Assembly: GCA_041674285.1 (NCBI GenBank)
Contig: JBAYVZ010000004.1
Span: 21,913 to 85,912, forward strand
DNA length: 64,000 bases
Reading direction: 5' to 3'
From: Minisyncoccota bacterium
GTDB lineage: Bacteria; Patescibacteriota; Minisyncoccia; Phycocordibacterales; UBA9973
Shown here: positions 31,216 to 46,106 of the stretch, piece after piece
Layout of the letters: every line of letters begins with the position of its first letter
Position numbering within the stretch: position 1 is the stretch's first letter
The notes under the pieces: model-generated
Database searches by the model: none
The model's input: the letters and a program-made list of their open reading frames with translations, nothing else
What the model was told of the DNA's origin: nothing
Made by a program: the position numbers and the translations under genes

Positions 31216-31278
31216 ATTATATCATAGGGTTTAATTTTTAAACCAATAAAATACCCCAGACTTTCATCTGGGGGTATT

Positions 31279-31794
31279 TTATTTTAGTCGTCCGGGGTGA
31301 TAACCACCCTCCTCTTCATATTTTTCTTTTTTACTCTCTTCTTCTGGTGTTATAAACTTACCTTTTTCTTCCAGAGTTCTCTGCATCCACAATCTGTATA
31401 ATTCACTAGCATGCATAGTATCGGTAGATATAAACATTGGAACATCGTACGAATGCAATTCACCAAGGAAAACAGTTAATCGTTCTGATAAATCAGAAGT
31501 AGTAGTCAACATAAGCATATACTGATCTACATCTTCTAGTACTCCGTGCCATGGATACACCGACTCAACGGGCCACAAATCTCCACACACTGCCATATGA
31601 TTCTCTACTGCGGACCGGGCCAGATCACGCGCCTCGTCCCTATCTCTGCATGTAGTATACACAAACACGGCACCTTCTGAATCTTTATTTATTTTATCTA
31701 TAATCATTGATTCTGCGGAATCACATCGCGCAAGTCGATTTAGCGCGATGCTCTTCAAATTAATAATAATTAAATCACTTCCTGCTGATAACAC
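31279..31794 (-). CDS. cutA: CutA1-like divalent-cation tolerance protein (start probably at the internal MIIDKINKD Met)
   Basis: VFVYTTCRDRDEARDLARSAVENHMAVCGDLWPVESVYPWHGVLEDVDQYMLMLTTTSDLSERLTVFLGELHSYDVPMFI follows the CutA trimer-fold pattern (...SxYxWxG.IxE..E..L..KT...L...v...HpYe.P). The annotated 5' end overlaps the upstream Cys-rich gene by 25 nt. Confidence 0.55.
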   Translation of the reverse strand: MLSAGSDLIIINLKSIALNRLARCDSAESMIIDKINKDSEGAVFVYTTCRDRDEARDLARSAVENHMAVCGDLWPVESVYPWHGVLEDVDQYMLMLTTTSDLSERLTVFLGELHSYDVPMFISTDTMHASELYRLWMQRTLEEKGKFITPEEESKKEKYEEEGGYHPGRLK

Positions 31795-33482
31795 TTCTCA
31801 CAATAAATAACCTCTGGTCGGTCTGGAGCGTAGCTAGTCTGGAATTCATTATCACAACCTTCGTGCATACATTTTCTGTTCCAGAGCTTTAAAGGTGTTC
31901 TTTTTGAAAATCTTTCTTTGTGACGACACTGATAACACATCCTAGGTATCGGAATATTGAATCTTTTGTAAAAGGTTAATTCATCTCGAGTTAGACGAAA
32001 TGCCCCAGAGCAACGATCGGATCCAGGGAATGTATCGCAAGATATTATTTCTTGCAGAATATCGAGGGAGGTATCTATTATTGAATCAGGAATTTGCTCT
32101 GTTTTAATTGTGGGATTATGATTTTGATTATCTTTATCTCTATATAAATAACCATTGCTAATGGTATCCTCTTTAGATAAAGGATAGAAGTAATTAGCGA
32201 TAGTCTCATTATAGGCAAATGGTGAAAATTCTATTGGGAAAAATTCTCCATATTTATACACCCTACCCTTTTTATCAACATATGGCATATCAATCATATG
32301 CTTTTTAATTTTACCAACCATATCAAAATATTCTTCTTTTGAATATTGTTTATTTAAAATACAATATGATTTATTTCTAAGACCAATACACCCAAATAAA
32401 TCATGCGAATTATAACAATTAAAAGAATATTCTACATTACTTGAGTTATAAACAACATTTGAAAAATTACAATTTGTGCCCCCTACTCCGGAGTCACAAG
32501 ACTCAAAACTATTTTCTAGCAGTCCAATAGCATTACAATAATAACAATCAAAAATATTTTCAGCTGCCCAGTACAAATATTTAGTATTTTTAACATTACC
32601 AGAAGCATCAAATATATGCTGACTATCAACAACGCCACTGAGGTCATTCCCTGTAGCATTATGACAATTAATCAACGCAGCATATTTATGAATTGAATTT
32701 AATTTTAATTCTTCAAAATCTTTTTTTAGTTTCTGAATTGTATTATAACTACCCAGATCATATTGTTTTATTTTTTCAAAATACTCCTCTTTTGAATATT
32801 GAATATTATTAAAACAATAGCTCTTGTTGCGGAGATTAGACGACATAAAACAATTCACACAACCCTTACAGTCATATAGGAAATAAGAGTCAGTTGATGA
32901 ATTTGTTTTTTCACAATAAAAAATTTTGTAAGAATCTACACAGTAAATATCCTGATAACAAAACTCACTATTGTGAACAACATACAAATCAGAAGAATCT
33001 TTAACTTTTGTAATAGAATCAGAATACATCGTTCTTTCATTTTTCCAACAAGCAGAACATAGATAACAGTCATAATTTTCTTCTGCTACATTACAATAAT
33101 CACTATTAACAGATTTTGAATTTGATAGGGCCTGAAATGGAACAACATCACGCAGAGCACGCCATTGTGAGAAAAAATCAACAGAAAAATCAAAATCACG
33201 TCCATAGTCAAATGGATCCCATTGGTCACCCCACCAATATTTTTGATCTACAATATTCATCTTTACATCTGGGTGATATATAGAGATTAAATCTTTCCCC
33301 GTCACACTATCTGGACGCCTATATAGAGCGTGAGTATTACGCCAAGCAAAACGTCTTTGATGTGAACAATCCGGGCAAAATGTAGGTGGTGGGACTTTTA
33401 TCTTGTCATAAAACGCAAAATCCTCTGGCTCTATCGTGAAATCCTGCAGGCAGTTCTGACATTGACGTGCTTCTTTATTCAT
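31770..33482 (-). CDS. Cysteine-rich zinc-ribbon repeat protein, paralog 1 (uncharacterised family; 570 aa, ~40 Cys)
   Basis: N-terminal CQNC...FYDKIKVPPPTFCPDC; C-terminal CYQCRH...C...YAPDRPEVIYCEKCYQQEVI; internal duplicated block ...C.GC.NCFMSSNLRNKSYCFNNIQYSKEEYF... / ...GCIGLRNKSYCILNKQYSKEEYF...YVDKKGRVYKYGEFFP. No signal peptide or TM. Confidence 0.6.
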   Translation of the reverse strand: MNKEARQCQNCLQDFTIEPEDFAFYDKIKVPPPTFCPDCSHQRRFAWRNTHALYRRPDSVTGKDLISIYHPDVKMNIVDQKYWWGDQWDPFDYGRDFDFSVDFFSQWRALRDVVPFQALSNSKSVNSDYCNVAEENYDCYLCSACWKNERTMYSDSITKVKDSSDLYVVHNSEFCYQDIYCVDSYKIFYCEKTNSSTDSYFLYDCKGCVNCFMSSNLRNKSYCFNNIQYSKEEYFEKIKQYDLGSYNTIQKLKKDFEELKLNSIHKYAALINCHNATGNDLSGVVDSQHIFDASGNVKNTKYLYWAAENIFDCYYCNAIGLLENSFESCDSGVGGTNCNFSNVVYNSSNVEYSFNCYNSHDLFGCIGLRNKSYCILNKQYSKEEYFDMVGKIKKHMIDMPYVDKKGRVYKYGEFFPIEFSPFAYNETIANYFYPLSKEDTISNGYLYRDKDNQNHNPTIKTEQIPDSIIDTSLDILQEIISCDTFPGSDRCSGAFRLTRDELTFYKRFNIPIPRMCYQCRHKERFSKRTPLKLWNRKCMHEGCDNEFQTSYAPDRPEVIYCEKCYQQEVI

Positions 33483-33498
33483 AATTTAATTATACATT

Positions 33499-34725
33499 TT
33501 AGACTCTTTTATACAAGAATCGAAATACTATACCCGATATGACTATAGTTATCGCAGCTATTAGTAGCGGTGTAGTAGAGGCTAGCGCTGCAGCGATGAA
33601 TCCAGAGAGTATTGCCGGGATAGCTTGAGCTAGAGCCTGGACAGAAGAACTAATTCCCATTATTTCCCCTCTTTGATCTGCTGGTGCTGATTTTGAAAGT
33701 AGACTATTTACATTGGCCATAGTGAGTCCTGTAAACATAGAAAAGAATGGAGGGATCAATAATAATTGCCAAGAATACTGTGGCAAGAAATATGCGAGAA
33801 TCATAATACCTGCCCCCATCAACGAATAACTAAGTATCTGATATTCACTAAATCTTTTTGAAAAAGCGCGAGTGAGCACTGCCTGAGTAAACACACTCCA
33901 TAGGCCTACGTATGCAAAAAAATCTCCGATATTTCCCTGAGTAAAAGAAAATTTATTAATTAAAAATACCCCAAAGAAAGTAGTGAAGAATGTAAACCCA
34001 CCAAAAAATAAAAAGTTTGTAGCAAACAGTATACTCATACCTTTCATCTTCATTGCACGTTTTATATTTGAGATTGATTTGCCCCAAGTCAGTTCTTCTT
34101 TACGTAGATTTTTATTTGTCTCAGGTACAAGGAAAAGTACAGACAGCATATTTATAAATGCCAAAAATGCTGCAAAATAAAATGGGACAGCAGCACTAAA
34201 CCAAGACACGATTGATGGATCAGAAAGCTTACCCCCTATATATGGACCAAATATAAACCCCAGACCAAATGCAGCACCCAGCATACCAAAGTTTTTTGCA
34301 CGATTATCTGGACTTGATACATCCCCTATCATAGCCTGAGCAATAGATATATTTCCACCTGTAATACCGTCAAAAAATCTTGAAGCAAATAATAATGGGA
34401 TATTTTTTGTAATGATAGCCACAGCGAACAATATATAAGACAGGGCCGTCCCCAAAAGTGCAATACTGAGAATTTTCTTTCTTCCGTATTTATCAGACAA
34501 CTGTCCGAGTATAGGAGTAGCAAGGAATTGACCGATTGGATACACAGCAATCAATAGCCCTAGTAACATATACCCCTGATTAAGAGACGTGCCAAATGGA
34601 AGCATGTATTCCGATGAGAACGGATTAGCAAATAACTGAGGAATAACCGGGATCAGTATCCCCACCCCGAGCAAGTCAATAAATACAGTAAGGAAAATTG
34701 TAATCAAAATTTTATTTTTAAACAT
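33499..34725 (-). CDS. MFS transporter (drug:H+ antiporter-like)
   Basis: 12 TM; motif A-like GxLSDKYGRKK between TM2 and TM3. Confidence 0.85.
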   Translation of the reverse strand: MFKNKILITIFLTVFIDLLGVGILIPVIPQLFANPFSSEYMLPFGTSLNQGYMLLGLLIAVYPIGQFLATPILGQLSDKYGRKKILSIALLGTALSYILFAVAIITKNIPLLFASRFFDGITGGNISIAQAMIGDVSSPDNRAKNFGMLGAAFGLGFIFGPYIGGKLSDPSIVSWFSAAVPFYFAAFLAFINMLSVLFLVPETNKNLRKEELTWGKSISNIKRAMKMKGMSILFATNFLFFGGFTFFTTFFGVFLINKFSFTQGNIGDFFAYVGLWSVFTQAVLTRAFSKRFSEYQILSYSLMGAGIMILAYFLPQYSWQLLLIPPFFSMFTGLTMANVNSLLSKSAPADQRGEIMGISSSVQALAQAIPAILSGFIAAALASTTPLLIAAITIVISGIVFRFLYKRV

Positions 34726-34788
34726 TGTTCTACTGTATCACAAAATTAAACACTACGCATAAAAAACTCACCCGGATGGGTGAGTTTT

Positions 34789-35334
34789 TTATGCTCTTGA
34801 GATGTATTTATAATTCCAAAGTATCAACATTAGGAATACTCCCATTGACAGTGCCATAACAGGGATAGATACATAAGAGAATTCATATACATATCGCACT
34901 GCACATGACACCTCGGTAGCACTACCCGTAGCACAAGCGAGATTTGACGCTCCTCCATGTTCTACATATATATGGAATAGTGATATTATGCTACCGATAA
35001 ATGCGAGAACTAGTGCGTAGTCCACTATCACCTTTTCCCTCTTCCAGAGCTCCATACCAAAAAGAATAACTTGTGGATAGATAAATATTCTCTGCATCCA
35101 ACACAATTCACAAGCTGGAAATCCAATCACATTTGAATAGAATAAACTAATTGCCATAGCTCCAAATGCAGTTAGGAATCCAATTATAAATGTGTAGTCG
35201 TGCAAAAATTTCAAAAACACATTATCTTTTTTTCTAAAAAACAAAAGTGCTCCAAAAATAGTAAAGCAAAAAAGCTGTATGAAAATCGTCCCTAGAGACA
35301 ATATATAATTCAATGTAGGTACGTAAGTAGGCAT
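34789..35334 (-). CDS. DsbB/BdbC-family disulfide-bond formation protein
   Basis: 4 TM; periplasmic loop GFPACELCWMQRIFIYPQ (CxxC followed by WxQR, typical of BdbC/DsbB); second Cys pair in the distal loop. Confidence 0.7.
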   Translation of the reverse strand: MPTYVPTLNYILSLGTIFIQLFCFTIFGALLFFRKKDNVFLKFLHDYTFIIGFLTAFGAMAISLFYSNVIGFPACELCWMQRIFIYPQVILFGMELWKREKVIVDYALVLAFIGSIISLFHIYVEHGGASNLACATGSATEVSCAVRYVYEFSYVSIPVMALSMGVFLMLILWNYKYISRA

Positions 35335-35335
35335 A

Positions 35336-35923
35336 TTATTGAGGTAGAGTAAACTTTATCTGTTCGGCCAAGAATTCAAGAGGAATCTCTCCTACTGCCA
35401 TAGCACTGCTATCAAAATTCCAAACATCACCATTTTGAACTGGATCTTTTTCTGACTTTATTGAGAATTTATAATTTGAAAATACCCAAACTTTTGCGTA
35501 CTCTGAATGTATATTTGCACAGACAGCAGGCTCCCCCTCAATCTTTGCCCCAGTAGGACTAGGAGCACAAGCAAGAGGCTTTGGGTCGGAAGATTTCAAT
35601 GTTATACCATTCTTGAATGTCCAAGATGGGTAACTCTCTACTTTATTAGCCTTGCACTCATTCGTCTGACCTCGTGAATCAGGGGTAGAACATTCTACAT
35701 AAGGTATATACTTTTTAGAGCTACCAAAAAGAGCTTTTGTAGCCTGACAATGCGGACACCAAAATGCCCCATAGAATACTGCACCCTCAGATTTGAGAGC
35801 TTGTGCAAAAGCGTCATACTTTCCAGGTTTTGCAGTTTTTTCAACAATAAAACCAACACCCATAATCAATATAATAATAGCAACAACAGACACGATGAAT
35901 ATATTTTGTTTTGTTTTAAACAT
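35336..35923 (-). CDS. Membrane-anchored thioredoxin-fold thiol-disulfide oxidoreductase (DsbA-like; motif type usually fused to VKOR)
   Basis: FYGAFWCPHCQATKALFG matches the Trx domain partnered with bacterial VKOR (YGAYWCPHCQ). N-terminal TM. Overlaps DsbB by 1 nt, so probably co-transcribed. Confidence 0.7.
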   Translation of the reverse strand: MFKTKQNIFIVSVVAIIILIMGVGFIVEKTAKPGKYDAFAQALKSEGAVFYGAFWCPHCQATKALFGSSKKYIPYVECSTPDSRGQTNECKANKVESYPSWTFKNGITLKSSDPKPLACAPSPTGAKIEGEPAVCANIHSEYAKVWVFSNYKFSIKSEKDPVQNGDVWNFDSSAMAVGEIPLEFLAEQIKFTLPQ

Positions 35924-35949
35924 AAGTTAATTATACCAAAATGATAGAT

Positions 35950-37995
35950 TTAAAAGAAATTAAAAATTAAACCAAAAAATGTTGTAATATTATGCCACAC
36001 AACCCTTGTGATTGCGGGTATTTTAGATACAAACGGTGCAGAACTCGCACTTGCTACTAGGTTATTTTTTGCTGGCACAGGACTATCCACAATATCATTC
36101 CTAACGACAGGTGTTATCTTTTTTACTTCTTTATTTGGTTTTTTTACTTCTTCTTTTTTTATTTCTTTTTTAGCTTCTTGAATGACTGGAGTAATCGGTA
36201 TAATTTTTTCTTGAACAACAGGAATGATAACAGCAGGAATAATTTCCACTTTATTTTCACCTGAAGTTTTTACTATTTCTGTGACTGCAGGCTTCTCAAA
36301 GTCAGACAGTATGTCTATCCATGATTTGAGTGATTCTGCTGTTAGCGCATAAGAGGTAGCCCAGACACGTGAATCTACATCGCTACCTATATCCCCTACA
36401 CCACCATCACTTTTCTGTTGTGATGATACATAATTTCTCGCATTAGACAAAGCAGATGCAAATTCAGATCCGAGTGATAGTGCCTGTATAGCCCAGCTTG
36501 TAGAAGATACATTGTCCCCTATACGCCCATCAGAAGATTGATTGCTGGTTAGATAAATATAAGCTTTGTCTATATAATCTGAGACTCCATTTTTATTTTT
36601 AAAAGGAGACAATGCCATTATCGCAGCAGATGTCATATCAACACTATTATCCCAAGACCCATTTGAGTATTGTTTAGTTTTTATAAAATCAATAGTATTG
36701 GCGATTATCTCATCTTTATATGAATACCCTGCTTTTTTCAAAACGATCAAGCCAAAGATGTCATCATTATCCAGGTTCGCATCCCCTATCTGAACTCCAT
36801 CAAATTTTCCTACAATTTTTGAGATATAGTCTACGTTTGTACCGCTATATGGATTTATACCGAGAGCCATCAGGGCCATCGCATGGCGCTCATTGTCAGT
36901 CACAGTGCTTGATGTAAAATTATTTGATGTTAGATATACAGCGATGCTTTCAATCAGAGCTGAGTCACCAGTAGATCCAATAGCGACAGCCCCCCAGTCC
37001 GTATACAATGATGTACCCAAAGATCCATCTGATTTTTTATTGGCATTTAAAAAAACTACTGCATTTTCTTTTGAGAAAGTTACTACAACAGGAGCACTAT
37101 TTGAACCACCAGAAGACACAGGCTCCGATACAGACACAGAATAAGATGGAAAATAATAATCCTCTGATACTCCTATATTGTATGCACCTGGACTTGAGAA
37201 AGAAAGATTTGCACTCCCCATATCATCTACCAACGTAGTTGATATTACGGTTGGATTCCATGGATCATTCGGATTTGTCTGGGTTATGCCGATATTCACC
37301 CCGGTACGCACCACCCATGTATCGTCTGTATAATTATAAGATTTTGCCTGTGCAGTTATGGACCCAGTAGTTGTGATTGTATTAGTATCTAAGTCTACCT
37401 TGTATGGACTACCAAAATACAAACCAATATTTTCTCCTCCTGAGAGAACAGTCGCATCGATACTTGTCCAAGGGCTAGCACCTCCTACTACATACTGCCA
37501 ATTATCACACACTTCTCCGGATGAATTTATATTTAAACATTTCAAATAAAAAGAAGAAAAAGAATCATAGTACTGCAGACTAGAAAGTGAGAAAGAATCT
37601 TCTGATTGATCGAGAGTGTATAGCACACCGAGCACACTCCGAGAATTCACAGAGTGAGATACTCCCACATTATCTAGTATATCTATATTCCCTTCTGGAG
37701 GTAGAGCAATATCCCCACTATACACAACGTCCGCACCATTACGAATAAATATATTTTCATACAAAATTGGTGCAGGTTCTTCAGCTTGATTTTGCTCTAC
37801 CGGAGGCTGTTCTTCTGTGGGGATTTCTTGTACCGGAGACTGCTCTTCTAGTGGGGCTGGCGTTGAATTCTGAGTCTCTTCTACTGGCGGATTTCCAGTA
37901 TTCTGATCTGTCTGAGTAGAATCTTCTGCATATACAAAAAATCCTGAGAAAATAAAACCGAGTATTATTAAGATAGAAAATATATTTTTTTTCAT
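35950..37995 (-). CDS. Secreted protein with Pro/Glu/Thr-rich linker and C-terminal prenyltransferase/squalene-oxidase-type alpha/alpha-toroid repeats (likely start at MKKNIFS, position 37995)
   Basis: Signal peptide MKKNIFSILIILGFIFSGFFVYA. Repeats KQYSNGSWDNSVDMTSAAIMAL / NQSSDGRIGDNVSSTSWAIQALS / QQKSDGGVGDIGSDVDSRVWATSYALT fit the QxxxDGSW-type toroid repeat. The 16-codon N-extension in the track ORF contains a solo element arm (CCCGTTAGGA). Confidence 0.6.
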   Translation of the reverse strand: MKKNIFSILIILGFIFSGFFVYAEDSTQTDQNTGNPPVEETQNSTPAPLEEQSPVQEIPTEEQPPVEQNQAEEPAPILYENIFIRNGADVVYSGDIALPPEGNIDILDNVGVSHSVNSRSVLGVLYTLDQSEDSFSLSSLQYYDSFSSFYLKCLNINSSGEVCDNWQYVVGGASPWTSIDATVLSGGENIGLYFGSPYKVDLDTNTITTTGSITAQAKSYNYTDDTWVVRTGVNIGITQTNPNDPWNPTVISTTLVDDMGSANLSFSSPGAYNIGVSEDYYFPSYSVSVSEPVSSGGSNSAPVVVTFSKENAVVFLNANKKSDGSLGTSLYTDWGAVAIGSTGDSALIESIAVYLTSNNFTSSTVTDNERHAMALMALGINPYSGTNVDYISKIVGKFDGVQIGDANLDNDDIFGLIVLKKAGYSYKDEIIANTIDFIKTKQYSNGSWDNSVDMTSAAIMALSPFKNKNGVSDYIDKAYIYLTSNQSSDGRIGDNVSSTSWAIQALSLGSEFASALSNARNYVSSQQKSDGGVGDIGSDVDSRVWATSYALTAESLKSWIDILSDFEKPAVTEIVKTSGENKVEIIPAVIIPVVQEKIIPITPVIQEAKKEIKKEEVKKPNKEVKKITPVVRNDIVDSPVPAKNNLVASASSAPFVSKIPAITRVVWHNITTFFGLIFNFF

Positions 37996-38048
37996 ATTAT
38001 TATTTATATTTAAATTGCGATCGCGGATCCTAACGGGATTCATATCCT

Positions 38049-38570
38049 TTAATTAATAAAGCCTTCTCTCTCCCATCGCACAGCATCACCCTCTTTCAAA
38101 AAATTCTTAGATATACCCACAGATGCTTTTTTATCATTTAAATAATACACCCAATATTTACCCTCATTACCTTGTAAACCATTGATACTATCTACAAACA
38201 TACCCATACCACTATAGTCTTTTGACGTAAAAGTAAAATATTTATTTTGAGTAGATAAATCTACCATTGATTGGTATATACTCACCCCTTCTGAGGCTTT
38301 GGATTCGTAAATTTTATCTTCAACGATTATTTTGATATTTATCTCATTTTTATCTATCTCTGGAATTATTTCTTTTACTTCTGAAATTTTATAAGTAACT
38401 TTTTTGGAACTTTCAGTTTTTCTCGGTACTAGCTTTGGGGCCTCTATTTTAGGTGTAGTATTCACTACTGATTCAGAGTTGCTAACTTTTTTAGAATACT
38501 GATAAAAGAAAGCAATAGACAGTATGACTAGGACAGCGAACAAAAATATTTTAATATATTTATTTTTCAT
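38049..38570 (-). CDS. DUF4430-domain protein (transcobalamin/intrinsic-factor beta-domain-like), membrane-anchored
   Basis: N-terminal TM; C-terminal ...GMFVDSINGLQGNEGKYWVYYLNDKKASVGISKNFLKEGDAVRWEREGF matches DUF4430 (GxxWxYxVNG...G...Y.L.dGD.I.W.Y). Confidence 0.6.
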   Translation of the reverse strand: MKNKYIKIFLFAVLVILSIAFFYQYSKKVSNSESVVNTTPKIEAPKLVPRKTESSKKVTYKISEVKEIIPEIDKNEINIKIIVEDKIYESKASEGVSIYQSMVDLSTQNKYFTFTSKDYSGMGMFVDSINGLQGNEGKYWVYYLNDKKASVGISKNFLKEGDAVRWEREGFIN

Positions 38571-38768
38571 AATAAATTAATGCATACTAAATAATAAAAA
38601 CTCCTGCACGGGCAGAAGTTTTTATATCCTTTTTTACAAAGAGATTTCCTGCTCGGGTGAACAATTTATATATTAAGATCGGACTTGTCTCTTGCGAGCT
38701 TTACCGTTGCGGCACAGTGGAGGAATATGACCTCACTTCCAAACATATAAACTTAAATTTTAAATGAA

Positions 38769-39290
38769 TTATACTCGGACAACTTCTGGAATAACAACGA
38801 CTGCAGTACTTTCCTTTTCTACCCATCTTTCAATCATTGGTGATAGAACTATAGCAAAGGATACATTTGAAAGCAAATGAATAGCCGTGAATGGTATCTG
38901 ACCTACTATTGCCGCCATGAATGATTGCCCAAAGAATAGTGGACCCATAGTCAAACCAGTAACAACATCAAATACGATAGTACTTACAAATGCGAATTTA
39001 GCATAGTTCTTCCATCCTGTACGATTCTGGAAATAGAAAGATGCAGCAAGACCAACTAATCCATAGGCAATACCTGCAAATAGTGTCCACACACCAAATC
39101 CTACTGTAAACATGTCGTACACAGCCACAGACAAGAAACCAAATAAAAATGAATACAATCTACCGTATGTACGAGACAACGGCATAACCATAGCCATCAG
39201 AGGCTCCAGATTTGGAGCCCTAAATGGTAGCAGTCGAACCAGTAGTCCAACTACAAACAGAGATATAATTTTGATTGGGTTTTTCTTCAT
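38769..39290 (-). CDS. Small polytopic membrane protein, ECF-transporter S-component-like (candidate cobalamin-specific CbrT-type)
   Basis: 173 aa, 5-6 TM, no soluble domains. Adjacent to DUF4430 and the toroid protein, which is a common ECF S-component context. Assignment by context and topology only. Confidence 0.4.
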   Translation of the reverse strand: MKKNPIKIISLFVVGLLVRLLPFRAPNLEPLMAMVMPLSRTYGRLYSFLFGFLSVAVYDMFTVGFGVWTLFAGIAYGLVGLAASFYFQNRTGWKNYAKFAFVSTIVFDVVTGLTMGPLFFGQSFMAAIVGQIPFTAIHLLSNVSFAIVLSPMIERWVEKESTAVVVIPEVVRV

Positions 39291-39408
39291 CCCGTTAGAA
39301 GTAGATACTCTTTAGAGTATCGTACATAATTTAACTAATAAACTCGAATATAACTAATTTATTCAAATAAAATCCGTAGCTAGAATAACATGCATGACTT
39401 CTAACGGG
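39291..39408. repeat. Palindrome-bounded element, copy C (IR CCCGTTAGAAGT / ACTTCTAACGGG) between nrdJ and the ECF-S-like gene; the left arm abuts that gene's ATG
   Basis: 39291-39302 and 39397-39408. Read on the minus strand it ends ...gatactc-taaa-gagtatc-t-acttctaacggg-ATG. Apart from compensatory stem changes it is nearly identical to the 3' end of copy A. Confidence 0.7.
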
Positions 39409-39426
39409 ATCATAAGTTTTTTTATC

Positions 39427-41796
39427 TTACACGATATCGCAAACTCCTGCAACACAAGCCAATTCTTTCTTTACCTCAGTCTCATCACGTAGTTCATAAG
39501 TCACGATCTTTGAGAAATCAAAGTCAGGCATGCGACTTGCGAGCTGTTCAAAGGTCTCTTTTGTTATCGCTTCATATGGAGCTAGCTGGTACACGTGATT
39601 TGAACGTGGTAGGAATGATAGTCCACCTACGATATCCCAGTTCTGATATAGCCAGTGCGCTACCTTGATCCATTCATTCTCCCCCACTGATATAGTCACA
39701 GATGGATTGTGCTCTGTATAATTTACCTTTACAACCTTCCAGTGCTCTAGCTGATCAATAGCAGATATATCATCTTTACATATCGCACCGTCTGGAGCTT
39801 TCATTGGGAATTCTAGAACAAAAGTATTTGCATCTTCTGCATTCTGCCCCACCTCTGCATGATATGGCACACCTTGGTCCTTCATCATTTTGAATAGTGA
39901 GTCTGTAGCAGAGATACGAACACGACGGATATAGTACGGAGCATGACGTGGGTGCATACCAGATGCACAATCCACAGTCTGAGATACAGTACCAGAAGGC
40001 TTCACTGCTGTGATACATGTAGATTCACTAACACCAAATTTCTTTGCATAAATCTTGTTTATACGGATAGCTTCTAGGCGGAGCTTTTCTAACATCTTTG
40101 CATCACGCGCCAAAGTCGAATCCCACTGACCAGTCACTGACACTCCTAGGAGTCTCTCCTCATCACAATTCTCCTTCCATTCCTTTGAAAGGTACCCGAA
40201 TTTTGTAAGTGTTGATTGATATGTTCCTAGAATTGTAGCGATACGGATCTTCTTCATCAGAGTCTTCTCTGTATCTTCTGCACGGGCTACAACTTCTGAA
40301 AGATTGCAGAACTGTTTTGATCGGAGGATAATCTCCCCACAAGGGTTTGTACCCATCTCTCCGATAAAGTCACGGGACTTTTCTACACGCCTCTTTGGTA
40401 GCGATGTATATAGTGATCCACGATTAAATATTCCACGCTCTCCTGTACCTGACTCCATAAGTGCAATCCACTCTCTTAGGAATTCTGTTTCTGTAGGTTT
40501 TGTATTGTATACAGCAGAGTTATTTGCGAGCATTCTCTGGCCTTCATTGTTCCAGAATTGACCATTCTTTGCATCACGCATGTCCTGATCATCTAGATCT
40601 GATAGTGAGATAAGTGCAGAACGACGTACTCCACCAGATACTACACACTCACCTATTTTACAGATGATATCGTGCGCATCGATATTGCGAAGATGTCTTC
40701 CTTGACGACGTAGGATACGTTCACGAGTAAAACCGAGTAGGTCTATCAATGGTTTTGGACCAGAGCTCTTGCCTCCCATGATCTTGAGACGTGCACCAGA
40801 AGGACGCAATAGAGAGAAATCGAAATCAACGTCCTCTCCGTTGAACCATGTCTTCATACCAAATACGAGTGCATCTGCCCAGCCCTCTTTTGTATCAGGA
40901 ACCACGTATGTAGGCTGCTTTTTGCCTACCTGAGTTTTGATCTGAGGAAGAGATTGAATATTCTGACTTTCGACAGAGAATCCTACTCCAGTACCACACA
41001 TAGATATGTAGACTATCTCACCAAAGTCTTGGAGCTTTGATGGTGCGATAAATGAACAATTGTACGCACATACATTTGTCTTCTCTGCTGCAGGTCCTGC
41101 GAATTGGAGTAGGCGCATTGATGGCATAGCTTCTTGCTTCAAAATACCTTCACGCACTTCTCCATACTCATCGACAGATAACATATCTCCGAGCTTTCCT
41201 TTCATGAATGACATATAGCGATCTACTGTCTCGATCCATGTCTCGCGTCTACCCTGCTCTTCGATCCATTTGGCATAAGTACGATAGTATACGAATTCAG
41301 AAAGTGGATTTCTGAAATATTTTTTACTTTCATCTGCGAGCTGCTTTACATGTGGAGGAACAGACATACTGTGTGATCGGAGACGAGCACGTTCTTCACG
41401 GTATAGGATGTAGTGCTTTGAAGTCTTTACATAATCAGAGAGCATGAGCTCCTGCTCTACGCTATCCTGGATACCCTCTACTGTAGGTACAAAGTTTTTG
41501 TACTTCTTTGCGATCTTTATCATGTCCATCAATACACGACTAGCCACTAGGTGAGCCTCTTCGATAGAGCCTTCTCCTGCTGCAAGCATAGCTTTATTAA
41601 TAGCATTCGTAATTTTTTCAATATCGAATGGAACAGTCGATCCATCACGACGTTGAACGCTTTTAATAAAATTATTCTTTATCTTTATCTCTGTTTTTTT
41701 CACAGGAGTTGCTTCTACTTTCTCTACAACCTCTACTTTTTTCGCGACCACTTTCACTTTTTTTGTAGCCTTAACTACTTTCTTTTTTGATGGCAT
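39427..41796 (-). CDS. nrdJ: Ribonucleotide reductase, class II (adenosylcobalamin-dependent), with N-terminal ATP-cone
   Basis: ATP-cone (VQRRDGSTVPFDIEKITNAINKA); active-site NPCGEI; C-terminal Cys pair CVAGVCDIV. The monomeric ~790-aa architecture has no separate beta-subunit gene, and there is no glycyl-radical motif. Confidence 0.8.
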   Translation of the reverse strand: MPSKKKVVKATKKVKVVAKKVEVVEKVEATPVKKTEIKIKNNFIKSVQRRDGSTVPFDIEKITNAINKAMLAAGEGSIEEAHLVASRVLMDMIKIAKKYKNFVPTVEGIQDSVEQELMLSDYVKTSKHYILYREERARLRSHSMSVPPHVKQLADESKKYFRNPLSEFVYYRTYAKWIEEQGRRETWIETVDRYMSFMKGKLGDMLSVDEYGEVREGILKQEAMPSMRLLQFAGPAAEKTNVCAYNCSFIAPSKLQDFGEIVYISMCGTGVGFSVESQNIQSLPQIKTQVGKKQPTYVVPDTKEGWADALVFGMKTWFNGEDVDFDFSLLRPSGARLKIMGGKSSGPKPLIDLLGFTRERILRRQGRHLRNIDAHDIICKIGECVVSGGVRRSALISLSDLDDQDMRDAKNGQFWNNEGQRMLANNSAVYNTKPTETEFLREWIALMESGTGERGIFNRGSLYTSLPKRRVEKSRDFIGEMGTNPCGEIILRSKQFCNLSEVVARAEDTEKTLMKKIRIATILGTYQSTLTKFGYLSKEWKENCDEERLLGVSVTGQWDSTLARDAKMLEKLRLEAIRINKIYAKKFGVSESTCITAVKPSGTVSQTVDCASGMHPRHAPYYIRRVRISATDSLFKMMKDQGVPYHAEVGQNAEDANTFVLEFPMKAPDGAICKDDISAIDQLEHWKVVKVNYTEHNPSVTISVGENEWIKVAHWLYQNWDIVGGLSFLPRSNHVYQLAPYEAITKETFEQLASRMPDFDFSKIVTYELRDETEVKKELACVAGVCDIV

Positions 41797-42019
41797 ATTT
41801 TTATAAAAAATTAATAATAATGTATCCTCCGATACTTTGGACTATTATTATACCGCCCGACCAAAACCATGCCAATACCCAAAACAGGCAAAAAAGCACT
41901 ATGTCGGACACTTACCCCGTCGTCAACTGCATCCCTGACAGAGCATTAAAACAGAAGTTATTTTCAGAAAAATTTACTAAAACTAAAAAACTACAAAAAA
42001 TTTCATTTTTTGTAGTTTT

Positions 42020-42499
42020 TTATCTGATTTTTTCTATTTTACAAGATAGTATATTGTAATTTTCATCAAAAACGGCACCTCCCTCAAAATATTCTCTATT
42101 TAGAAAAAATGGGAACCAATATTTATCAGATTTCCACATCTTCTCAAAAGGGATTTTATCTATATGGAACCAGTATGGAATCATCTCGTTACTCTCAACT
42201 AGAACTCCTGTACAATCCAAGCCTTCATATATATGAACTTCCTTAATAGAATCAAAAAATTCAAATTTCATAACTCCACGAAGCTCGTATTTCAATAAAT
42301 CTAAATCCGATTCCTCTTTCATCTCGCGCACGAGTGCCTGCTCCACACTCTCCTCCGGATCTACCTTGCCACCGTAGCCATTATAGTTCCCGGCGCCAAA
42401 ACGAACTTTCTTCATGCCAAGCAAAAGTTCATCCTCTTTTCGCAAGATACAAAGAGTCATAACTTGCGTAGGTTTTTGAATGTTATTTTCTTTATTCAT
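42020..42499 (-). CDS. NUDIX hydrolase (MutT-like)
   Basis: Nudix box GGKVDPEESVEQALVREMKEESDL (GX5EX7REUXEEXGU). Confidence 0.8.
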   Translation of the reverse strand: MNKENNIQKPTQVMTLCILRKEDELLLGMKKVRFGAGNYNGYGGKVDPEESVEQALVREMKEESDLDLLKYELRGVMKFEFFDSIKEVHIYEGLDCTGVLVESNEMIPYWFHIDKIPFEKMWKSDKYWFPFFLNREYFEGGAVFDENYNILSCKIEKIR

Positions 42500-42564
42500 C
42501 TTAATATTCCATATTTTAAATTATTACTATTCCAATCCCATGGGTTTGAAATAGTAAAGACTAC

Positions 42565-44277
42565 CTAGAGTACTTCTTGTTGATAACATTTCTCACAATA
42601 TACCCTCTCTGGTCGATCTGGGGCATAGGTTGTTTGAAAAGTGGTTCCGCAGTTGTTTGAACATTCGCGATTATACAAACTGAGAGGGTTTCTGTATCTT
42701 AGTCTTTCTTCGTGTCGACAATTTGGGCATAATCTAGGAATGGGTAAATTATTCTTCTTGCAAAATTCTAGTTCTTCTTTTTTTATTCTAAAAGCATATG
42801 TACATTGATTACTAAAACCTTCAACTTTACTACACAAAATAACATCATCTAATATTGAGTCATTTATTTCGGAGATACAATCAGGTAGAGTGTCCTTGTC
42901 CTGATTAGTCTTGTAGTCTCTAATGTCTCTTTCATACCAGTTATAACCCATATCAAGAGCAGTATCTTTCGAAATAGGATACATATCATTGGCAAGAGAC
43001 TCATTGTAGCCAAATAATGAAAATCCAGTAGGAAAAAACTCTCCGTACTTATAAACCCTACCCTGTTTATCTACATAAGGAATATATATCATATGTTTTT
43101 TTATTTTACCTACAGCATCAAAATATGCATCTTTTGAATATTGCTTGTTTAATATACAATATCTTGCATTCGTAAGACCAACACAACCAATACAATCAGT
43201 ACAATTTTTACATGAGATAGAATACTGTATATCTCTTGAGCTTACACACATAAAACAAGAAACTTGGTTGAAGGACCCCCCGCTGCCAGTCATTGTCTCG
43301 TACTCGAGCTCCCCAGCCAAAACCCATCCGCAATCCATTAGATCTTTTGATTTTACAATACGATAAGAATAACTAATATCTTCAGCCTCCATTATATCGA
43401 ATGATTTTTTTACATTCTTTGATCTTGTGATTATATCCCCAGAAACATCGACAGAAGCGATTACATTTGCAAAGCGATGGGTAGCAGAACTTATTAAGCC
43501 TTTAAATTCATCTTTTAAAATAACCAAGGTTTTAAAAGAACCTCTCTCTAAATCCTGGATGGCTTTTTCGTAGTCAGATTTTGATAATTTTACATTCCTA
43601 AAGACATAAGATTCATTTCTTAACCCTGAAGACATAAAACAATTCGAGCAGTTAGAACAATCAAAAAGAAATGAAGAGTCCATACAATTCTTGGATTCAA
43701 ACATATAGTGACAATTATAATTTTTCTCTGAATTTATATTCCAAGAGCACTGCTGTATATCTATACAAGACAAACAATCAAAACAATCTTTTGATCTATC
43801 TACATTTTCGGAATAAAAAATATTTTCTGATTCAATAGATGAAAAAGATAGGTATAAATTTTTAGAATTTACTATTGAGTTAGAATAGTCACTATCCAAG
43901 TTTGTCCCATATCGAATAGAAAAAACTCTCGGTTGAACATTCAAAATATTTTTAAGCTGAGTAAAAAAATCTTTAGAAAAATCAACATCTGCTGAAAATT
44001 TATACATATCCCAGTTGTCGCCAGAATAACAACTCTCACAGTAAACAGGAGCGCCATCATCCTTATAAAAAGAAATTAAATTTTTTTTACAAACACCACA
44101 AGAGCGAGAATGAAGAGATCTATTGTTTCTCCATGAGAGTCTTCGGATATTTCTACACTCCGGGCAGAATGTCGGTGGTGGGACTTTGATCTTGTCATAG
44201 AACACAAAATCCTCTGGATCAATAGTGAAATCCCCTTTGCAATTCTGACACATTCTTTTTTCTGTTTGATATTCCAT
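42565..44277 (-). CDS. Cysteine-rich zinc-ribbon repeat protein, paralog 2 (tandem with paralog 3; start taken at MEYQTEKRMCQNC)
   Basis: Same architecture as 31770-33482: CQNCKGDFTIDPEDFVFYDKIKVPPPTFCPEC ... YVDKQGRVYKYGEFFP ... CPNCRHEER...YAPDRPERVYCEKCYQQEVL. The ORF-track start at 44355 would overlap paralog 3; the internal Met at 44277 removes the overlap. Confidence 0.6.
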   Translation of the reverse strand: MEYQTEKRMCQNCKGDFTIDPEDFVFYDKIKVPPPTFCPECRNIRRLSWRNNRSLHSRSCGVCKKNLISFYKDDGAPVYCESCYSGDNWDMYKFSADVDFSKDFFTQLKNILNVQPRVFSIRYGTNLDSDYSNSIVNSKNLYLSFSSIESENIFYSENVDRSKDCFDCLSCIDIQQCSWNINSEKNYNCHYMFESKNCMDSSFLFDCSNCSNCFMSSGLRNESYVFRNVKLSKSDYEKAIQDLERGSFKTLVILKDEFKGLISSATHRFANVIASVDVSGDIITRSKNVKKSFDIMEAEDISYSYRIVKSKDLMDCGWVLAGELEYETMTGSGGSFNQVSCFMCVSSRDIQYSISCKNCTDCIGCVGLTNARYCILNKQYSKDAYFDAVGKIKKHMIYIPYVDKQGRVYKYGEFFPTGFSLFGYNESLANDMYPISKDTALDMGYNWYERDIRDYKTNQDKDTLPDCISEINDSILDDVILCSKVEGFSNQCTYAFRIKKEELEFCKKNNLPIPRLCPNCRHEERLRYRNPLSLYNRECSNNCGTTFQTTYAPDRPERVYCEKCYQQEVL

Positions 44278-44281
44278 ATTT

Positions 44282-46036
44282 TTACAATACTTCTTTTTGA
44301 TAACACTTCTCGCAATATACTTTTTCAGGTCTGTCTGGGGAGTAGCTAGTCTCAAACTCTACATCACACTGCACTACGTGATCATGATTATCCAGATCAC
44401 ACATGCACTGACGGTGCCAGAGCTTCATTGGATTACGTTTTGACAATCTGTCCGCATGACGACAGCTATAGCAAACTCGAGGCAGTGGAATAACGAGCCT
44501 CTTGTAGAAAGAAACTTCTACTTCATTCATTTTATAAGCTTTTGTGCAAGTTACATACTTATCATTGTTTATATTTTTACATTCTACAATCTCACCCAGG
44601 ATAGAATCATTTACATCAATGATTGAATCAGGCAGTTCAGAGGACTTCACAGTAATATTGTATTGTTTATTTACTTTTGGTATATATTGAAAATTTTTCT
44701 GAACTAAATCATTTTCATTCAAAGGGAAAAAGTCCCCTGCAACAGTATCATTATAAGCATAAGGAGCAATCTCTATAGGAAAAAATTCTCCATATTTATA
44801 GATATTCCCCATGCTGTCACTGTAAGGGATTTCATTCATCTGTTTTTTTATTCTGCCTAGCAACTCAAAATATTCATCTTTTTCATACTGCTTGTTGAAT
44901 ATACAATAATTTTTATTTTTCAAACTCACACAACCAAAACAATTATTGCAAGAATAGCAATTAAATGAATACTCTACATTCGTAGAATTCCAAACAACTA
45001 CACTAAATTTTACATTACTATTAGCTACACCGATACTAATACCCTCATAAGTAAGTTCTGACTTTCCACCTGCACCAGGGCCGACATCGTATGAATCCTT
45101 CAATCCAAAAGTCCCCCAGTTACAATATTTGATATTCTCGACACCCCTTGGCAGATCAAAAGAATAATATGCATCTTTTGCATTTTGCATATTATCCCCC
45201 ACCACATTTACACAGTTGGTAAGCTGGGCGTATTTCCTAATGGCATTTTTCTTTAATAACTCAAATGATGCCTTATGATTTTGAATTGATGCATAACTAC
45301 TCAAATTAAATTCTTTAATTTTTTCTTTATATTCATCTTTTGAGTATTGAATATTGTTTATGCAATAAGATTTATTTCTCAAACTATTACACATAAAACA
45401 ATCAGTACAATTCCTACAGTCAAAAAGAAAATATGAATTTACACAGTTATATGAGTTCTCGCTATAAAACAATCGAGACGAATCCCCACAATAAATATCC
45501 TCGTACGAGAAATCTAGCTTGTGGCTGATATATGAATCTACTGTATTCTGACAAAATGATATCCTGTTTGAATACATAGAATCTTCACATGTCCAAACAG
45601 CAGAAAGCATATAATTATTTTTACTCTCAGTAATATAATTACAAAATTGATTATTTACACCCTTGCTATCAAAAAAAGAAATCAGGGGTGTTCTATATAA
45701 AAGATCTTTATACTGAGAAAAGAAATCTCGAGATAAATCATATTCGCAACCAAAAGATATAGCATCCCAACTATCACTCCACCAATAAGTATTGTCGTAA
45801 GAGGAAACAGGAATACTCTCAGGGTAAGTAGAGATCATTTTTTCTTCGGAGCCAGGCTTGTCATTCTTTCGAAAGTACAGACCTCTCTCATTTCTCCAAG
45901 CTAGACGTCTCTGCATTCTACACTCCGGACAGAATGTCGGTGGTGGGACTTTGATCTTGTCATAGAACACAAAATCCTCGGGCTCTACTACGAACTCCCC
46001 TTTGCAATTCACGCACGCTCTCGTTTCTGGGCTCAT
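44282..46036 (-). CDS. Cysteine-rich zinc-ribbon repeat protein, paralog 3
   Basis: CVNCKGEFVVEPEDFVFYDKIKVPPPTFCPECR ... LRNKSYCINNIQYSKDEY ... NKNYCIFNKQYEKDEYF...YSDSMGNIYKYGEFFP ... CYSCRHADR...YSPDRPEKVYCEKCYQKEVL. A 50-nt stretch at its 5' end is identical to paralog 2 at the DNA level. Confidence 0.6.
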   Translation of the reverse strand: MSPETRACVNCKGEFVVEPEDFVFYDKIKVPPPTFCPECRMQRRLAWRNERGLYFRKNDKPGSEEKMISTYPESIPVSSYDNTYWWSDSWDAISFGCEYDLSRDFFSQYKDLLYRTPLISFFDSKGVNNQFCNYITESKNNYMLSAVWTCEDSMYSNRISFCQNTVDSYISHKLDFSYEDIYCGDSSRLFYSENSYNCVNSYFLFDCRNCTDCFMCNSLRNKSYCINNIQYSKDEYKEKIKEFNLSSYASIQNHKASFELLKKNAIRKYAQLTNCVNVVGDNMQNAKDAYYSFDLPRGVENIKYCNWGTFGLKDSYDVGPGAGGKSELTYEGISIGVANSNVKFSVVVWNSTNVEYSFNCYSCNNCFGCVSLKNKNYCIFNKQYEKDEYFELLGRIKKQMNEIPYSDSMGNIYKYGEFFPIEIAPYAYNDTVAGDFFPLNENDLVQKNFQYIPKVNKQYNITVKSSELPDSIIDVNDSILGEIVECKNINNDKYVTCTKAYKMNEVEVSFYKRLVIPLPRVCYSCRHADRLSKRNPMKLWHRQCMCDLDNHDHVVQCDVEFETSYSPDRPEKVYCEKCYQKEVL

Positions 46037-46077: not shown

Positions 46078-46106
46078 ACAAAAAACCACCCAATGGGTGG
46101 TTTTTG
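46078..46106. terminator. Terminator hairpin aaaaaaccacccaatgggtggttttt (shared core with the 529-556 and 57486-57514 terminators)
   Basis: CCACCC-AAT-GGGTGG stem with flanking A/T runs. Confidence 0.55.

Follow-up and report, generated by a model that had tools for sequence, protein, structure and literature searches.

A large family of predicted zinc-capped β-solenoid proteins in Paceibacteria, often encoded in tandem arrays and in some clades beside VirD4-like ATPases

Introduction

The closest described systems each resemble one part of the proteins reported here. Zinc fingers of the CxxC-x17-CxxC type occur in two small Methanosarcina mazei proteins that bind Zn, as measured by ICP-MS (PMC12704099). 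In our family, both terminal modules have a second finger with Cys pairs about 16–17 residues apart and an F/Y-x-P...VYC-x-x-C core like theirs, but in the C-terminal module the first pair is Cx4C or is expanded to CxC..HxH..C, and the finger makes up about 6% of a 570-aa protein whose remainder has no known relative. The double treble-clef modules of LIM, PHD and FYVE proteins gave no significant matches; their ligand spacing and Arg-rich helix differ, and they are eukaryotic families, unlike this one from Paceibacteria.

Known β-solenoids offer a second comparison. Insect antifreeze β-helices (TmAFP, 1ezg; CfAFP, 1m8n) are built of 12-residue coils with a Cys ladder, as are the three members described below (P1–P3), which however lack the T-C-T ice-binding array and have neither signal peptide nor transmembrane (TM) segment. 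These proteins, curli CsgA (8c50), LβH acyltransferases and γ-carbonic anhydrases are all unrelated to the family in sequence, and the family's solenoid differs from theirs in being duplicated and capped by zinc modules.

A third comparison comes from gene neighborhoods. Patescibacteria encode 5,713 VirD4-like T4CPs, almost all distant from virB4 and possibly exapted, and their T4SS seem to have taken on specialised roles outside conjugation (PMC12102498). About one in three arrays of our family is flanked by orphan T4CP-like ATPases; unlike VirD4/TrwB T4CPs these have no virB4 or relaxase context, and none of the known T4CP adaptors or substrates resembles the family.

Results

The window, meaning the whole 64,000-nucleotide stretch that was analysed, encodes three members of the family:

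31770–33482, minus strand: P1, 570 aa, 31 Cys
42565–44277, minus strand: P2, 570 aa counted from ATG (the longest ORF reaches a TTG at 44355), 35 Cys, full 8-Cys N-terminal module kept
44282–46036, minus strand: P3, 584 aa, 31 Cys, CxC..HxH..C insertion in the last finger

All three ORFs are intact paralogs at the positions given by an earlier note on this DNA, with pairwise identities of 42% (P1–P2), 48% (P1–P3) and 37% (P2–P3). The terminal motifs quoted there and the repeated LRNKSYC..NKQYSKEEY motif are all present, while its figure of about 40 Cys per protein gives way to the counts above. None of the three has a TM segment or signal-like N-terminus (max KD19 <0.9), in agreement with that note, and its view of them as soluble, cytoplasmic, Cys-rich proteins with zinc-finger termini is supported. 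P1 is recorded as 'hypothetical protein WC089_02610' of Ca. Paceibacterota; it has a homologue at 97% identity, and relatives at 72% identity occur in other genomes.

The two ends of each protein are copies of a single module of about 85 aa. N- and C-terminal modules align with a probability of 99.7% (hhalign, E=1e-26, 81 columns), so the previously described zinc-ribbon ends are related to each other. The parts of P1 lie as follows:

33228–33482, minus strand: N-terminal zinc module, residues 1–85, finger 1 formed by C8/C11/C36/C39, homologous to the C-terminal module
32799–33137, minus strand: β-solenoid half A, residues 116–228, ending in CxxCxxC..LRNKSYC, from hhalign against half B
32343–32693, minus strand: β-solenoid half B, residues 264–380
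32052–32342, minus strand: capping helix and conserved middle segment, residues 381–477, YKYGEFFP...YNET
31773–32051, minus strand: C-terminal zinc module, residues 478–570, with finger 1 (C482/C491/C516/C519) and finger 2 (C538/C543/C561/C564)

Finger-1 Cys of the N-terminal module are kept in 93–98% of 141 diverse members; the finger-2 columns (positions 58, 61, 79 and 82) carry Cys in 48–80% of the family, are intact in P2 (C60xxC63-x16-C80xxC83) and are lost from the degenerate second finger of P1. The insertion columns seen in the last finger of P3 occur in 62% of the family. Across the same 141 members, which are 34–48% identical to P1, the 12 terminal Cys are 77–99% conserved, and they probably hold structural zinc, at some 3–4 Zn per protein. 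Both modules also keep Arg/Asn positions (R40, R44 and N49; R520, R524 and R536). Each module is mildly basic (median charge about +4, pI 6.3–8.5), the core carries about −15 and the whole protein about −7 (pI 5.5–5.7), a pattern that fits protein docking better than bulk nucleic-acid binding.

The last finger weakly resembles the CxxC-x17-CxxC zinc finger, which is the sole link to any known family. Its two Cys pairs stand about 17 residues apart (C538-x4-C543-x17-C561-x2-C564 in P1). The P2 C-terminus scores 19.1 bits against PF23477 (zf_Tbcl_2; E=0.001), below the Pfam cut-off of 27 bits, and 17 bits against TIGR04272 (E=0.0036), below the NCBIfam cut-off of 36 bits; the P1 C-terminus gave no match in the TIGR04272 search. 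An ATPase neighboring an array scores 45.8 and 43.4 bits on profiles of this finger. Against the TIGR04272 fingers of such ATPases, hhalign gives a probability of 95% for the N-terminal module (E=2e-8) and 74% for the C-terminal module (E=3e-5).

The AlphaFold (AF2) model (pLDDT 85.7, pTM 0.86) combines solenoid strands with knuckle/helix fingers and shows a predicted acidic β-solenoid flanked by two double treble-clef Cys4 modules; half A is modelled at a pLDDT of only about 60. The two halves of the core align with a probability of 99.9% (hhalign, E=2e-37, 125 columns), which, like the match between the terminal modules, goes far past what chance would give and bears out the internal duplication noticed earlier. 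The profile repeats itself with a period of 12/24 and a Cys ladder in the solenoid. Columns at least 90% conserved are nearly all Cys, Gly, Pro, aromatic, ladder Asn or finger Arg. Conservation is lowest in the solenoid and linkers; the capping helix and middle segment (median net charge −6) are among the family's most conserved blocks.

The central Cys are unlikely to form an Fe-S site because they are only 30–94% conserved and follow a ladder-like register of 3/9/12 residues. CxxCxxC motifs end solenoid halves, and half B of P1 lacks one. Ferredoxin and radical-SAM clusters were considered and rejected: P1–P3 contain neither CxxCxxCxxxC(P) nor CxxxCxxC, and no Fer4 or Radical_SAM match was found in Pfam. 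The earlier proposal of Fe-S proteins is thus not supported. Disulfide ladders are also unlikely, since P1–P3 have no signal peptide.

Searches of Pfam, NCBIfam, PHROGs, PADLOC, PDB sequences and PDB folds returned no match covering the protein, all results staying below threshold; as first stated, the proteins can be assigned to no named family. The sole PHROGs match is phrog_15341 (unknown function; E=9.6e-5), on the P2 solenoid. PADLOC anti-phage defence profiles gave no matches, viral and mobile contigs in IMG/VR and INPHARED held no relatives of the family, and Foldseek returned E-values of 3e-3 or worse with TM ≤0.11.

The family is very large, unnamed and undescribed, and belongs to ultra-small Patescibacteria. 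Clustering at 50% identity gives at least 4,465 clusters, virtually all of them from Paceibacteria, and species-representative genomes contain at least 577 loci; the description of an uncharacterised lineage-specific family holds as to the missing name, but the family is not narrow. Members contain 24–49 Cys. In 52 of 80 loci, 2–8 same-strand copies lie within 20 kb, a tandem-array habit absent from the earlier note. Median identity to the best match is 59% when that match is sought in other genomes and 44% when it is sought in the member's own array; for 97% of members the relative in another genome is the closer one. By these comparisons, the paralogs are anciently diverged and not recent duplicates.

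P2 and P3 stand in tandem, 4 nt apart, and have an exact 50-nt segment in common:

44165–44214, minus strand: 50-nt stretch in P2, identical to P3, encoding EDFVFYDKIKVPPPTF
45930–45979, minus strand: partner copy in P3

Within it, 16 codons in a row are the same in both genes; elsewhere, identical residues share their codon in 53% of cases. With p=0.53 for each codon, the chance of such a run at a fixed position is about 4e-5 for 16 codons and 1.9e-5 for 17. Of the two origins suggested earlier, gene conversion is plausible: on the codon pattern, P2 and P3 probably share a micro gene-conversion tract. Recent duplication does not fit two genes whose products are 37% identical.

Around the three genes, Pfam identifies CutA1, MFS, DsbB, Trx-like, NrdJ, NUDIX and VKOR, which backs the neighbors named earlier (NrdJ as the B12-dependent RNR). 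The following features frame the genes:

31279–31707, minus strand: cutA1, probable start M30, directly downstream of P1 (Pfam CutA1, E=7e-23)
31254–31273, minus strand: terminator-like hairpin after cutA
46081–46105, minus strand: terminator-like hairpin between fusA and P3

The supposed overlap of P1 and cutA is an artefact of a GTG start taken for the longest ORF. The CutA1 domain begins at residue 44 of that ORF and homologues are 101–143 aa long, so M30 at 31707 is the likely start, leaving a 62-nt gap. Hairpins at 31254–31273 and 34757–34794 bracket an MFS-P1-cutA unit, and the one upstream of P3 suggests that P3-P2(-NUDIX) starts a new transcription unit. The cutA co-occurrence recurs: of 81 loci, 10 have cutA directly beside a family member, as has locus L164. 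The nrdJ link is weak, with only 4 of 126 arrays having nrdJ as the next gene downstream. Nearly all ORFs in the window are on the minus strand, and Paceibacteria gene runs are long and co-directional, which makes same-strand adjacency weak evidence.

VirD4/TrwB/TraG-type P-loop ATPases are present in 31 of 81 loci, directly upstream of 21 of 126 arrays and directly downstream of 16, most upstream gaps being −8 to 83 nt. This association is absent from the earlier note. The ATPases exceed the Pfam cut-offs for TrwB_AAD_bind, T4SS-DNA_transf and TraG-D_C; those flanking arrays have no TM segments of their own, and one of the paired ATPases has a CxxC-x17-CxxC finger like that of the family. The linkage occurs in at least three surrounding contexts (FAM, family member): dnaK-T4CP-FAM-T4CP-dnaJ, secDF-sigma-membrane protein-T4CP-FAMxN and guaA-ABC-T4CP-FAM. 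When loci were sampled from the ATPase side instead, 32 of 80 metagenome loci contained family members and the more distant ATPase clades (60–68% identity) had none nearby, so the link is clade-restricted and partly inherited synteny. The window contains no T4CP gene, and P1, P2 and P3 are all without ATPase linkage.

Discussion

We tentatively read the whole as a family of zinc-capped β-solenoid proteins that act in binding rather than catalysis, with VirD4-like ATPases as the best candidate partner. Each protein would be an acidic solenoid of two homologous halves, capped at both ends by copies of a module of about 85 residues, and each module would consist of two Cys4 treble-clef zinc fingers, the second of the CxxC-x17-CxxC type. 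The central Cys would be stacking residues of the solenoid ladder, not an Fe-S site. P1–P3 are probably non-enzymatic and most likely binding or adaptor proteins, a function that genomic context and shape suggest with low confidence.

A doubtful alternative is that the Arg-rich helices after each CxxC (C-P-x-C-R-x-x-R-R...R-N) contact DNA or RNA, serving DNA uptake or processing, or nucleotide salvage, either independently of DNA-translocase-like ATPases or alongside them. The Arg/Asn positions kept in both modules are consistent with this, as are the T4CP-like neighbors, guaA upstream of 5 arrays, nrdJ downstream of 4, and NUDIX plus nrdJ in the window; yet the modules are just mildly basic, the whole protein is acidic, and profile searches detected no known DNA- or RNA-binding domain.

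It is unlikely that the proteins are effectors which VirD4-like ATPases feed into a secretion or transfer channel so that they reach the host cell on which these episymbionts live. Diversified paralog arrays do adjoin coupling-protein homologues, the C-terminal end ...YCEKCYQxEV is strictly conserved, and the apparent specialisation of Patescibacteria T4SS beyond conjugation (PMC12102498) would suit such a role. However, the paralogs are ancient and conserved across genera, unlike fast-evolving effectors, tight zinc folds make poor unfolding substrates, T4CP genes almost never lie close to virB4, and viral and mobile contigs are devoid of relatives.

Similarly unlikely is a role in proteostasis, in which the proteins would assist the Hsp70 system as holdases or co-chaperones with a zinc centre, possibly a redox switch, like that of DnaJ or like Hsp33. 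DnaJ is found in 17 of 81 loci and DnaK in 15, L164 reads grpE-FAM-FAM-cutA, and in Nomurabacteria-like genomes the order runs grpE-FAM...dnaK-T4CP-FAM-T4CP-dnaJ-FAM; but only one clade shows this arrangement, which may reflect inherited synteny, P1–P3 are not close to chaperone genes in the window, and they have neither the DnaJ-type CxxCxGxG motif nor a J-domain or Hsp33 match.

Metal handling, the function first proposed, in which the Cys bind or buffer Zn or Cu or carry Fe-S in a functional tie to cutA, is very improbable: the high Cys content, the recurrent CutA1 adjacency (including the window) and the CxxCxxC ends of the solenoid halves speak for it, but the variable conservation and ladder register of the central Cys, the motif missing from P1 half B and the negative Fe-S searches argue against it, and 570 aa with about 3–4 structural sites would make a poor metal buffer. 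An enzyme (an LβH-type transferase or γ-carbonic-anhydrase relative) or a bactofilin- or curli-like self-assembling solenoid is scarcely credible given no Hexapep, bactofilin or curlin match in Pfam, a sequence period of 12 versus 18 for the hexapeptide-repeat β-helix, whose signature with 18-residue turns is lacking, the poor Foldseek results, and no catalytic or metal-binding His like those of LβH transferases and γ-carbonic anhydrases inside the solenoid repeats, the only His column of at least 30% within residues 116–380 being H265 (33%) at the connecting-helix/half-B boundary.

Under the binding or adaptor reading, the proteins would dock through their conserved, mildly basic zinc modules on one shared partner, for which the best candidates are the orphan VirD4-like coupling ATPases that flank arrays in many Paceibacteria. 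Specificity would differ from paralog to paralog through the variable faces of the solenoid, and this would account for the several old paralogs kept in a tiny genome.

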